Positions 14,479 through 33,582 of a DNA stretch of 64,000 nt are shown here, one piece after another. Made by a program: the position numbers and the translations under genes. The notes beneath the pieces are model-generated. The model saw only the letters and a list, made by a program, of their open reading frames with translations, made no database searches and had not been told where the DNA came from. Origin of the DNA: Escherichia coli (GTDB lineage: Bacteria > Pseudomonadota > Gammaproteobacteria > Enterobacterales > Enterobacteriaceae); NCBI RefSeq assembly GCF_041886205.1, contig NZ_CP169029.1. One strand, given 5' to 3'. Every line of letters begins with the position of its first letter. Within the stretch, counting starts at the first letter, position 1.

Positions 14479-15345
14479 TTAAGGGCGTGCGAGGAAATTC
14501 AGCACCAGTTGATTGAAAGCGTCGGCATGTTCCCACTGCGCCCAGTGACCGCAGTCGCGGAAGATATGCAGTTCAGAACCGGCAATGCCGGACAGCAGAC
14601 GCAGACCCGCATCCATCGGCACAAAGCGGTCGTTGCGCCCCCAGACAATCAGGGTTTGCGCTTTGATTTCCGCCAAACGTGGGCCAAAATCCGGGAACTG
14701 TTTCGGATTGGCTTCCAGGCTCTTAACAAAGTTTTCCAGGTGATCGCGGCGCGACAGCATATTATTCAGGCGCGCTTCAAACAGGGCGTCGGTCAAATCG
14801 CTGGTATCAAAAACGAAGATATCCATCATCAGCTTCAGGTTTTCGATAGTCGGCTGACGATAAAGCTGATTCAGTCGCTTAATACCTTCGGTTGGCATCG
14901 GCGTAAACAAACTCATGCCGCCCGTACCGCCGCCCATCAGCACCAGTTTGCCGACGCGCTCCGGCCAGTTAAGGGTGAACGCCACAGAACTATGGCCGCC
15001 CATCGAGTTGCCCAGCAGGTGGATTTTGGCGATATCCAGTTGATCCACCACGCTTTTCAGGATTCGTGCATTAAGATCCGATCGTGAACCACTATTAACG
15101 ATCGAATCGCTTTTGCCCCAACCCGGACAATCCAGCAGGATCACCCGATAGCCCGCCTCTACCAGCGGATCGATATTGCGGCTGAAGTTCGCCCAGCCAG
15201 TAGCACCCGGGCCGGAACCATGCAGCAGGACAACGGTTTCGTCGCCTTGTCCGCAGTCATTAAAATGGATGCGCAGCGTTTTACCCGCTTCTTCTACATT
15301 CAGAAAACGGCTGGTGGCGGCTTCGGTTTGTGGCTGATAACTCAT
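14479..15345 (-). CDS. mhpC: 2-hydroxy-6-ketonona-2,4-dienedioate hydrolase (alpha/beta hydrolase)
   Basis: 288 aa from [20 protein letters not shown] nucleophile elbow; ORF open upstream to 15408. Confidence 0.9.
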
Positions 15346-28926: not shown

Positions 28927-30210
28927 TCACCGTTTGTAATCGATGGCTTCTGGCTGCTCCAGATATACGGTGGTTTGTGCCGGTTGTGTACTGGCAATCA
29001 CCTTGCCGCCACGTACCGAATAACGTACCGGAACCTGACGGCGCAGCGCATCAAATCCATTTTCAGCCGGCAGGATAATCAGGTTTGCGCTGTTTCCGGC
29101 GGCAATGCCGTAATCCTGCAAATTCAACGTTCTGGCACTGTGGTGGGTGATTAAATTCAGGCCATCGTTAATCTGCCCGTAGCCCATCAACTGGCAAACA
29201 TGCAGCCCCATATGCAGCACTTGCAGCATATTCGCCGTTCCCAGCGGATACCACGGGTCGAAGACATCATCGTGACCAAAGCAGACGTTAATGCCGGACT
29301 CCAGCATCTCTTTAACGCGCGTGATGCCGCGACGTTTTGGATACGTATCGAATCGTCCTTGCAGATGAATATTGACCAGCGGGTTGGCGACAAAGTTAAT
29401 ACCGGACATTTTCAGCAAGCGGAACAGACGTGAGGTATACGCCCCGTTATAGGAGTGCATTGCCGTGGTGTGGCTGGCGGTGACTTGCGCGCCCATGCCT
29501 TCACGGTGCGCCAGGGCAGCAACGGTTTCGACAAAGCGCGACTGCTCGTCATCGATCTCATCACAGTGAACGTCGATGAGACGGTCGTATTTTTGCGCCA
29601 GGGCGAAGGTTTTATGCAGCGACTCCACGCCGTATTCACGGGTAAATTCAAAATGCGGAATCGCCCCAACAACATCTGCCCCTAAGCGTAGCGCCTCTTC
29701 CAGCAGCTCTTCACCGTTGGGATACGACAAAATCCCTTCCTGCGGGAAGGCGACAATTTGCAGATCAATCCACGGCGCAACTTCCTGTTTCACTTCCAGC
29801 ATCGCTTTCAACGCAGTCAGCGTTGCGTCGGAGACATCGACATGGGTACGCACATGCTGAATGCCGTTGGCAATCTGCCATTTCAGCGTTTGCCATGCGC
29901 GTTGTTTCACGTCGTCATGGGTTAATAACGCTTTGCGCTCGGCCCAGCGTTCAATGCCTTCAAACAGCGTGCCGGACTGATTCCAGTTCGGTTGCCCGGC
30001 GGTTTGCGTGGTGTCCAGGTGAATATGCGGCTCCACAAATGGCGGTATAACTAAACCTTGTTCGGCATCCAGGCTGTTTTCAGTTACGGACATCACGCCG
30101 GATTGCGCATCAATGGCGCTGATTTTTCCGTCCTGCAGATGAATCTGCCACAGCCCCTCTTTGCCGGGTAACCGGGCGTTAATAATTGTATGTAAAGCGT
30201 TATTCGACAC
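28927..30210 (-). CDS. codA: Cytosine deaminase
   Basis: 427 aa from a GTG start ([16 protein letters not shown]...); HxH metal-binding N-terminal motif ([10 protein letters not shown]); 5' end overlaps codB. Confidence 0.93.
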
Positions 30211-31459
30211 TGTTAGCCTCCACACGCGTCATTGCAGCCGTCGTTTTGCGATTCAAAATCGGGTTAAGGATCAGATAGCTCAGCGCGCCACCTAATACCG
30301 CGTTGACCGGAACAATTCCCGGTAACCAGTGGCCTGCGGCAATCCCCAGCGCGACCGCCAGAATCGCCACCCAATTGACACTCATCATACGCGTGGTCGC
30401 AAAGTGCTCATAGCGGCGACGGTTCATCAGATAGTCAGCGATGATCACGCCCCCTACCGGAGGAATAGCTGCCGAAAGGAAGGTCAGCCAGCCGACAAAA
30501 TTGTTATACAGCCATAATGCGCAGACCGTACCGATAATACCGTTAATCACCGAAAGGGTTTTACTCGACATACCAGTAATGTTGGCGAAACCTAAACCCG
30601 ACGCATAGAGCGCGTTATCGTTGGTGGTCCAGATATTCAGCCCCAGCACCACAATCGCAGGCAGCAGCAGTCCCTGAGCAATCATCACATCAGAGATATC
30701 CGCCATCCCCAGTGCCGCAGCGCCCGCTGCACCGAAAATAAACATCAACGAGTTGCCGAGGAAAAAGGCCACCATCGCCACCAGCACCGCCAGTTTGGCA
30801 TTGCGACCAAACCGGACAAAGTCAGCGGTGAGCGTACCCGCACTGATAAATGACCCCACAACCAGCGCCAGCGCGACATTGAAATCTAATGGTTGTGCGG
30901 GAACGACCGCTTTTAATGCGTCCAGGCCGCCCATGCCGTTAACGGCCAGCCACACGGAATAACCGCCAAGACAGGCGATCGCCGGAACCGCAATCACCGA
31001 AAGAACTGTCAGCGCCGAAATGCCAAAGAAGACGGTGACGGTCATCAGTAAACCGGAAACGGCAATCAGCAAATTAATATCCAGCCCGGTTGCCTTGCCC
31101 ACCGGAATAGCAAACATCGCCACACCGACGCCAAACCAGCCAACCTGGGTGCCGCCCAGCAGCAGTGAAGGCAGCCATGAGCCTTTAACACCAAACGAGA
31201 AGCGAGCAAGAAGATGAGTGGTCAGGCCGGTTTTTGCGCCAATGTAACCGAGAAATGAAGTGTAAATACCGAGGAGAAGATTGCCGATGAGAACTGCGAG
31301 GAAGAAATCATGATAGCTAAGACCGGTTCCGAGAGTGCCGCCGGTCCACATACTGGCGGAAAAGAAGGTTAATCCCAGCATGACGAACGTCAATGCCAAT
31401 ACCCCTTTCCGCGCCGACTGCGGGACTGGCCCCTGGCTAAAGTTGTTATCTTGCGACAC
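30200..31459 (-). CDS. codB: Cytosine permease (NCS1 family)
   Basis: 419 aa; [33 protein letters not shown]. Confidence 0.95.
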
Positions 31460-31525
31460 GAAATTCCCCCTTTTTGCTGTTTGAAACCCAAAAAATCCGC
31501 CGCATTCTATTCATCTGAAGATAAA

Positions 31526-31541
31526 AAGCAATCGTTTTCGT
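31526..31541. promoter_or_regulatory. Candidate PurR box upstream of codBA
   Basis: Minus-strand reading ACGAAAACGATTGCTT approximates the pur-box consensus ACGCAAACGTTTGCGT. Confidence 0.4.
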
Positions 31542-31612
31542 GGGGAAATATATTTTTTATATGAATGAGTGCAAAAAGGTGGGGGAAAAATTATCGGTGT
31601 AAAAACAGTGGG

Positions 31613-31692
31613 TAGGCATAATAAGACGCGGTAAGCGTCGCATCAGGCATCGGCGCATGGTGTCGGATGCGCCAGGCGACGCATCCGACAAC
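31613..31692. repeat. REP cluster
   Basis: GGCATAATAAGACGCGGTAAGCGTCGCATCAGGCAT ... GTCGGATGCGCCAGGCGACGCATCCGACA. Confidence 0.8.
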
Positions 31693-31695
31693 ACC

Positions 31696-33582
31696 TTACT
31701 CTTCCATCGCCTGACGGATCTGATCCAACGACGCCGGATCATCAATGGTCGTCAGATCCCCCGGATCGCGTCCTTCGCAAATCGCCTGGATTGTGCGGCG
31801 CAGCATTTTTCCGGATCGCGTTTTTGGCAATTGCGAGACAAACCAGACGTGCGCCGGGCGGCCAAAGTTGCCAATCTGGCTGTCCACCAGCGCCATAATC
31901 GCCTTCTCTTGCGAATGCGCCACCTCACGATCTTCCAGACTATCGCTCTCTTTCGGAATGACAAACGCCACTGCCACCTGCCCTTTCAGCGCATCTTTCA
32001 CCCCAACCACCGCCACTTCGGCAACGCCCGGATGACTGGAGATACTCTCTTCAATCTCGCGCGTCCCCAGCCGATGCCCGGCAACGTTAATTACATCGTC
32101 AGTGCGCCCGAGAATAAAGTGATAACCGTCAGCGTCACGGATGCCCCAGTCAAAGGTGGCGTACACCGGGCGGGAAAACAGCGACCAATACGTCTTCACA
32201 AAGCGGTCGTCGTCGCCCCAGATGGTCTGAATACAGCCCGGCGGCAATGGCCCTTCCACCACCAGCATCCCTTTCTCATTGACGCCGCACGGTTCGCCGG
32301 TGACTTCATTAAGCAACTGCACGTTATAGCCATACATCGGCACGCCGGGGCTTCCCAGACGCGTCGGCCTGTCGTCCAGACCGCGAGCAATCGCCATAAT
32401 CGGCCAGCCGGATTCGGTCTGCCAGTAGTTGTCGATGACCGGCACATCCAGCGTATTGCTCACCCAACTGGCGGTCGGCTCGTCCAGCGGTTCTCCAGCC
32501 AGATAGAGCACTTCCAGCGACGAGAGATCGTGTTTACGAATTTCAGCGGTAGGGAATTTTTTCAGCACGCGAATGGCAGTCGGCGCTGAGAACATCCGGC
32601 TCACCTGATATTTCTCGACGATTTTCCACCACACGCCGCAGTCCGGCCAGGTCGGTAATCCTTCGTAAACGATAGTCGCCATCCCCGCCAGCAGCGGCGC
32701 GTAGACGATATACGAATGCCCCACCACCCAGCCGATATCCGAAGCACAAAAGAACACACCGCCCGCTTTGCCGCCAAAAATGGTGTCCATCGAGGTCGCC
32801 AGCGCCACCGCATATCCGCCGACGTCACGCTGCACGCCTTTAGGTTTGCCGGTCGTGCCGGAGGTGTAGAGAATGCAGGAGGTTTCGTTGGATTCCAGCC
32901 ACGCCACCGGTACCCGCGCGCCGATGTGTTGATGGCGCAACGACGCGAAATCGACATCCCGCCCGCTGACGCGTGCCATTTTCGCCAGCCCGCGATCCAC
33001 CAGCAAAACATGGCGTGGCTGGTGCTGCGCCTGACTTATCGCATCGTCGAGCAATTTTTTATAGGGAATGATTTTGCCACCGCGCGCTCCGGCATCAGCC
33101 GAGACAATCAGCACCGGGTTAGCATCATCAATTCGCGCCGCCACGCTGTGCGAGGCAAATCCACCAAACACCACCGAGTGAATAGCGCCAATGCGCGCGC
33201 AGGCCAGCAGAGTAATATGCGCTTCGGCAATCATCGGCATATACACCAGCACCCGATCGCCACGCTGCACGCCCAGCGAGCGCAGCATTGACGCCACCGC
33301 ATTCACTTCGTCATGCAGCTGACGAAAGGTAAAGGTGCGCTCTTCTTCTGTTTCCGAAGAGACGGCAATCAGCGCCAGCGCCTCTGGCTGTTTCTCCAGC
33401 CAGCGGTCGATAGCGTTGTGACACAAGTTGGTTCGGCCTTCACAAAACCAACGGGCAAATGGCGGATTACTGTGGTCGAGCGTTTGCGTAAAGGGCGTCT
33501 GCCAGTCAATACGCCGGGCCTGCTCGGCCCAGAACTGCTCCGGTTCGTTAATCGAACGCTGATAAAATTCGCTAAAAGACAT
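31696..33582 (-). CDS. prpE: Propionyl-CoA synthetase
   Basis: 628 aa acyl-CoA synthetase; MSFSEFYQRSINEPEQFWAEQARRIDW; AMP-binding YTSGTTGKPKG. Confidence 0.95.
   Translation of the reverse strand: MSFSEFYQRSINEPEQFWAEQARRIDWQTPFTQTLDHSNPPFARWFCEGRTNLCHNAIDRWLEKQPEALALIAVSSETEEERTFTFRQLHDEVNAVASMLRSLGVQRGDRVLVYMPMIAEAHITLLACARIGAIHSVVFGGFASHSVAARIDDANPVLIVSADAGARGGKIIPYKKLLDDAISQAQHQPRHVLLVDRGLAKMARVSGRDVDFASLRHQHIGARVPVAWLESNETSCILYTSGTTGKPKGVQRDVGGYAVALATSMDTIFGGKAGGVFFCASDIGWVVGHSYIVYAPLLAGMATIVYEGLPTWPDCGVWWKIVEKYQVSRMFSAPTAIRVLKKFPTAEIRKHDLSSLEVLYLAGEPLDEPTASWVSNTLDVPVIDNYWQTESGWPIMAIARGLDDRPTRLGSPGVPMYGYNVQLLNEVTGEPCGVNEKGMLVVEGPLPPGCIQTIWGDDDRFVKTYWSLFSRPVYATFDWGIRDADGYHFILGRTDDVINVAGHRLGTREIEESISSHPGVAEVAVVGVKDALKGQVAVAFVIPKESDSLEDREVAHSQEKAIMALVDSQIGNFGRPAHVWFVSQLPKTRSGKMLRRTIQAICEGRDPGDLTTIDDPASLDQIRQAMEE

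Follow-up and report, generated by a model that had tools for sequence, protein, structure and literature searches.

The 64,000-nucleotide stretch of Escherichia coli DNA analyzed here (hereafter, the window) carries mhp, lacI-ZYA, cynXST, cynR, codAB, prpEDCB, and prpR, in that order. The 236-nt spacer that separates prpE from codB houses a 16-bp element, referred to below as the PUR box, and codB is the first gene under it. The genes on either side, which were named via NCBIfam equivalog or subfamily models, and the box itself are arranged as follows.

31696..33582, minus strand: prpE, matched by its NCBIfam model with a very strong score.
31526..31541, minus strand: the PUR box (candidate PurR operator), whose 16 bp, ACGAAAACGATTGCTT, form an imperfect palindrome centered on CG.
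30200..31459, minus strand: codB, a cytosine permease of 419 amino acids with a GTG start (NCBIfam NF008241, E = 2.4e-209; RefSeq annotation of matching genomes).
28927..30210, minus strand: codA, which follows codB in the operon and encodes cytosine deaminase (NCBIfam NF006685, E = 1.6e-270).

The codA start at 30210 was taken from the RefSeq annotation of the same locus in strain 6EVA (locus coordinate = window coordinate - 13299), according to which codB and codA overlap by 11 nt (30200..30210). The longest codA open reading frame begins at a GTG at 30225 and, at 432 amino acids, is five codons longer than the annotated 427-amino acid protein. Strain 6EVA is 100% identical to the window over a 501-bp query around the PUR box, a query that finds matches in 5396 of 5426 complete E. 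coli genomes. Between the prpE stop codon and the codBA promoter lies a REP/BIME-type palindromic element (31615..31690), which gives a subthreshold Rfam match to naRNA4 (RF02564) on both strands (39.6 bits versus a gathering score of 59.5). No RNA family was found over the PUR box itself in an Rfam search of 31380..31760, in which the naRNA4 match was the only one. The purR gene is absent from the 64-kb window; E. coli carries it elsewhere, and for K-12, Cho et al. 2011 (PMC3159470) give a purR site at 1.73 Mb.

The sequence ACGAAAACGATTGCTT is present as a single copy in the window, on the codB strand, and its 3' end is 66 nt from the codB GTG. It thus falls within the interval upstream of codB (31460..31560) to which the original prediction had assigned a candidate PurR site, and it was matched in none of 100 dinucleotide-preserving shuffles of the window. 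The PUR box agrees with the ideal palindrome ACGCAAACGTTTGCGT at 13 of 16 positions, with the central CG kept, and it conforms to the PUR-box consensus ACGNAAACGTTTGCNT, a 16-bp imperfect palindrome with a central CpG.

To quantify this resemblance, we used the 28 PurR motifs from ChIP-chip that Cho et al. 2011 tabulate (PMC3159470, Table 1). The codBA site is itself one of these motifs, and its entry was removed to avoid circularity, leaving 27 sites from which a log-odds matrix was built and run over both strands of the 64-kb window. The PUR box scores 22.2 bits and is the top match in the window by about 7 bits. With leave-one-out scoring, it ranks fourth of the 28 ChIP-chip sites, below purT, sdaCB, and purHD and above purL, purF, purR, and purB. 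The exact tail probability of such a score is 1.8e-8 per position, corresponding to an expected count of 0.0023 in the whole window (both strands) and of 8e-6 in the spacer, and 2 of 300 first-order-Markov random 64-kb windows attain it. The likeness to the PurR operator consensus that had been claimed from inspection is therefore borne out by a PurR matrix, at a score that does not fall below threshold. The next independent match, AGGACAACGGTTTCGT at 15227..15242 on the plus strand, lies within the mhpC coding sequence and scores 14.3 bits; as this is lower than the mean best score of the random windows (15.7 bits), we take it to be a chance occurrence and not a PurR site.

The published regulation of codBA agrees with these results. 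Cho et al. 2011 (PMC3159470, Table 1) report a PurR ChIP-chip region for codB-codA at 354056-354323 of MG1655, enriched only in the presence of adenine (log2 1.41), and the motif that they locate in it, at 354064-354079, is the exact 16-mer ACGAAAACGATTGCTT. The ChIP was done with tagged PurR, and its resolution at this locus is the 268-bp region, so that the assignment to the 16-mer rests on the motif search together with the conservation described below. In the same study (PMC3159470), deletion of purR affects both codA and codB, which are among the 23 genes classed as directly repressed by PurR. Addition of adenine lowers codB expression 34.5-fold, an effect that is not attributable to PurR alone because adenine also represses pyrimidine-pathway genes (PMC3159470) and because codBA is subject to UTP-dependent and nitrogen-dependent controls as well. 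Purine repression of cytosine uptake and deamination, the second part of the original prediction, is thereby upheld by the literature. Papers on RegulonDB grade the evidence for the codBA PurR site as strong, PurR-codBA appears among the known E. coli interactions in a 2008 comparative paper (PMC2329645), and the title of Andersen et al. 1989 names purR in the regulation of codA. The interpretation first drawn from the sequence is supported; the site was already known, and in this respect the finding is an ordinary one.

In the K-12 reference sequence (NC_000913.3), the PUR box is found at 354840-354855, which corresponds to the coordinates of Cho et al. plus 776. A gapped alignment shows the promoter to be 100% identical between the window and K-12 MG1655 from the edge of the REP element to the start of codB. 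The two sequences share the 16-mer, all of the promoter on the codB side of the REP element, and a 66-nt spacing to the GTG, and the K-12 data therefore apply directly to the window. Although the regulatory region shows no difference, the REP arrangement upstream of the promoter does, being longer in K-12 than in the window.

The elements of the sequence around the PUR box are listed here from the distal end toward codB.

31548..31562, minus strand: NAC-like site ATA-N9-TAT, read from the sequence, with its center at 31555, or -59 from A31496.
31526..31531, minus strand: hexamer TTGCTT at the -35 position (3/6 matches to TTGACA), read from the sequence and forming the 3' half of the PUR box.
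31504..31509, minus strand: -10 hexamer TAGAAT, of which TAnnAT is invariant in 19 promoters of Enterobacterales and Pasteurellaceae.
31489..31497, minus strand: initially transcribed region GATTTTTTG, with the A at 31496 taken as +1.
31466..31470, minus strand: Shine-Dalgarno-like GGGGG, read from the sequence, 6 nt before the codB GTG.

The initially transcribed region of codBA is documented as 5'-ATTTTTTG (PMC7039003, citing Qi & Turnbough 1995), which places +1 at about 31496 and therefore the PUR box at about -45 to -30, over the -35 region. The -10 hexamer lies 7-8 nt upstream of this documented initiation sequence, and a GC-rich discriminator, GCGGCG, occupies the interval between TAGAAT and GATTTTTTG, the whole extending from 31509 to 31489 on the minus strand. 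Since TTGCTT is separated from the conserved -10 hexamer by 16 nt, we infer that it serves as the -35 element; bases T50, T51, G52, C53, and T55 of the block at this position are invariant in the 19 taxa aligned. Other taxa have AGGAG or GGAGG aligned at the position of the Shine-Dalgarno-like sequence of codB. UTP-dependent start-site switching and nonproductive stuttering have been documented for codBA, and the features of a UTP-sensitive promoter that undergoes reiterative transcription are present here, namely a T-run at the start site with a -10 hexamer and a GC-rich discriminator just upstream. The alternative G start of codBA, reportedly described by Qi and Turnbough in 1995, would correspond to 31497. 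Among the matches listed in a full-text literature search for GATTTTTTG, only unrelated papers were found.

Activation of codBA by Nac has been documented. Muse et al. in 2003 reportedly gave ATA-N9-TAT as the Nac consensus and placed the codBA Nac site at -59, with which the putative site at 31548..31562 would agree. The ATA-N9-TAT sequence is not recognizably conserved in the other genera aligned. A generic sigma-70 scan proposed a different promoter, TTTGCA-17-TATATT at 31575..31547. We rejected this candidate as the main promoter: it shares sequence with the Nac-like A/T tract, lacks conservation in other taxa, and would start transcription ~40 nt upstream of the documented ATTTTTTG. The same scan did not call TTGCTT-16-TAGAAT, the -35 hexamer of which has only 3/6 matches.

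To gain insight into how strictly this region is maintained within the species, we searched for a 96-nt promoter segment (31480..31575) and found it in 5222 of 5426 complete E. coli genomes, at an identity of at least 99% in 3416, 95-99% in 1163, and 90-95% in 645. Five divergent alleles were fetched. All of their substitutions fall upstream of the PUR box, some of them directly at its 5' edge, and the sequence from the PUR box through the GTG is invariant. Among the changes in the divergent alleles are an A-to-G substitution in the ATA-N9-TAT spacer and others in the CCCC tract between ATA-N9-TAT and the PUR box. The segment has no match in 204 of the 5426 genomes, and some E. coli lineages may be without the codBA promoter region or carry a disrupted one. 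A few copies (8 places) are found on plasmids.

We then extended the comparison to other genera. From species-representative genomes, 80 codB loci (L006-L085) were collected by protein similarity to avoid a bias toward the PUR box, and the 300 nt upstream of each codB were scanned with the codBA-excluded matrix; 300-nt stretches taken from within codB served as controls. Of 78 upstream regions, 45 contain a box that scores at least 15 bits, compared with 0 of 234 coding-sequence controls, the highest of which scores 8.3 bits. Such boxes occur in 28 of 29 Enterobacterales (including Proteus, Morganella, Providencia, Citrobacter, Salmonella, Kluyvera, Edwardsiella, Hafnia, Budvicia, Pragia, and Leminorella), 9 of 10 Pasteurellaceae, 8 of 36 Vibrionaceae, and 0 of 3 others; Marinobacter, Pseudoalteromonas, and Spirabiliibacterium are among the taxa without one. 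In Enterobacterales and Pasteurellaceae, 58-67 nt separate the box from the start of the codB match; in Vibrionaceae, it is farther away, mostly at about 100-105 nt. This distribution indicates, as judged from sequence comparison, that conservation of the PurR-codBA link extends much further than was reported in a 2008 Tractor_DB study, which, among 20 genomes that carry both genes, found it conserved only in Salmonella typhi and Salmonella typhimurium and chose it to illustrate poor conservation of an interaction (PMC2329645). Regulon databases that postdate this study probably contain the wider range implicitly.

In a MAFFT alignment of 19 promoters from Enterobacterales and Pasteurellaceae, the PUR box, TAnnAT, and the discriminator with its T-run stand out as three conserved blocks whose spacing is fixed; the T-run is invariant in all 19 taxa. 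The mean column information of the PUR box is 1.62 bits versus 0.46 and 0.63 in its flanks. Some of this conservation would be expected if the block were kept only as core promoter DNA, a -35 hexamer with an upstream element, and its likeness to a PUR box were incidental and without a role for PurR, as TTGCTT does sit at -35 relative to the conserved -10. The conservation, however, runs through the 5' half-site, which lies upstream of -35 (mean 1.46 bits, compared with 1.78 for the right half-site). It is also dyad symmetric about the CG and relaxed at positions 4, 7, 10, and 15, the same positions that vary among other PurR sites; over all 16 positions, the Spearman coefficient between the profile of the codB-promoter boxes and that of the other 27 E. 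coli sites is 0.86 (p = 2e-5). Moreover, in vivo occupancy of the region by PurR depends on adenine (Cho et al. 2011, PMC3159470). We thus consider it very improbable that the block is promoter sequence and nothing more.

A further explanation is that the palindrome mainly serves a different LacI-family repressor whose operator has a similar AAACGTTT core, such as a regulator of ribose or nucleoside genes, and that PurR binds it only secondarily. Operators of this family share a common central core, xAAxCGxTTx, and the left half of the codBA box, CGAAAAC, departs from the ideal GCAAAC. Left halves of the form ACGAAAAC are nevertheless found in the bona fide pur promoters purT, purHD, and purL, the arms of the box carry the PurR-specific GCAA/TTGC signature, and its score is among those of the best PurR sites. 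It was tagged PurR that gave the occupancy data, deletion of purR altered expression (PMC3159470), and the literature searched yielded no second regulator at the PUR box. Primary control by another member of the family is accordingly very unlikely. A chance match without function, for which the 2 in 300 random windows might be cited, is scarcely credible given an expected count of 8e-6 in the 236-nt spacer, a box without any change across the fetched E. coli alleles despite variation in neighboring bases, its conservation at a fixed distance in other genera, and its published occupancy in vivo. Even when these three explanations are combined, they retain only a slight probability, and ACGAAAACGATTGCTT is almost certainly the operator through which PurR represses codBA.

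PurR is a LacI-family purine repressor that uses hypoxanthine or guanine as its corepressor. When either of these is plentiful, the corepressor-bound dimer would be expected to occupy the palindrome, from about -45 to about -30, and TTGCTT, the half-site on the 3' side, would double as the -35 element of a weak sigma-70 promoter (TTGCTT, 16 nt, TAGAAT). Because this half-site sits at -35, PurR on the operator would compete with RNA polymerase for the -35 region, and transcription of codB and codA would be reduced. Steric occlusion of RNA polymerase is the most likely mode of repression, as suggested by the overlap of the two elements. According to Cho et al. 2011 (PMC3159470), PurR generally affects initiation, from sites in the -35 to -10 interval.

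The codBA box shares its 16-bp imperfect palindromic form, its ACGAAAAC left half, and its central CG with the PUR boxes of the pur regulon, such as those of purT (ACGAAAACGTTTGCGT), purHD, and purL. Its position overlapping the promoter is, as in the pur regulon, typical of PurR repression of initiation. It differs from the pur regulon boxes in having A instead of T at position 10 and T instead of G at position 15, both of which are tolerated variants. Whereas the genes of the pur regulon serve purine synthesis, codBA functions in pyrimidine salvage and nitrogen scavenging, and the codBA promoter, unlike the pur regulon boxes, also carries the Nac and UTP-sensing controls. The purB and purR sites, which lie within coding or transcribed regions, use the same repressor and motif as codBA; they are elongation roadblocks inside the transcribed region, however, whereas the codBA box is upstream of +1, over the -35.

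The fixed spacing of the three blocks suggests an old arrangement. PurR control of codBA, an operator that is at once the -35 region, and a start within a T-run very probably constitute an ancient architecture, held at fixed spacing in Enterobacterales and Pasteurellaceae and looser in some Vibrionaceae. The segment comprising the -10 (TAnnAT), the GC-rich discriminator, and the T-run start (31489..31509, minus strand) is kept from E. coli to Pasteurellaceae (L007-L074), and UTP-sensitive start-site switching and stuttering at codBA may be as old as control by PurR. One Enterobacterales locus stands apart: CodB of Hafnia paralvei (L007, 1380..2769) is 94% identical to that of E. coli, compared with 81-86% for other Enterobacterales. 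In this species, the PUR box is identical and the remaining promoter through the T-run nearly so, with the similarity starting just upstream of the box. This pattern suggests that the codBA cassette may have been transferred horizontally together with its promoter.

Overall, the PUR box would explain why the cell shuts off the uptake and deamination of cytosine when it has ample purines. All three of the codBA controls had already been described for E. coli K-12, and the finding has little import beyond correct annotation of the window; the comparative footprint modestly widens the known phylogenetic range of the PurR-codBA link, a minor correction. For the organism, a single promoter of about 75 bp would join three signals, with nitrogen sensed through the Nac site, purines through PurR at the PUR box, and pyrimidines through UTP-sensitive initiation at the ATTTTTTG region.
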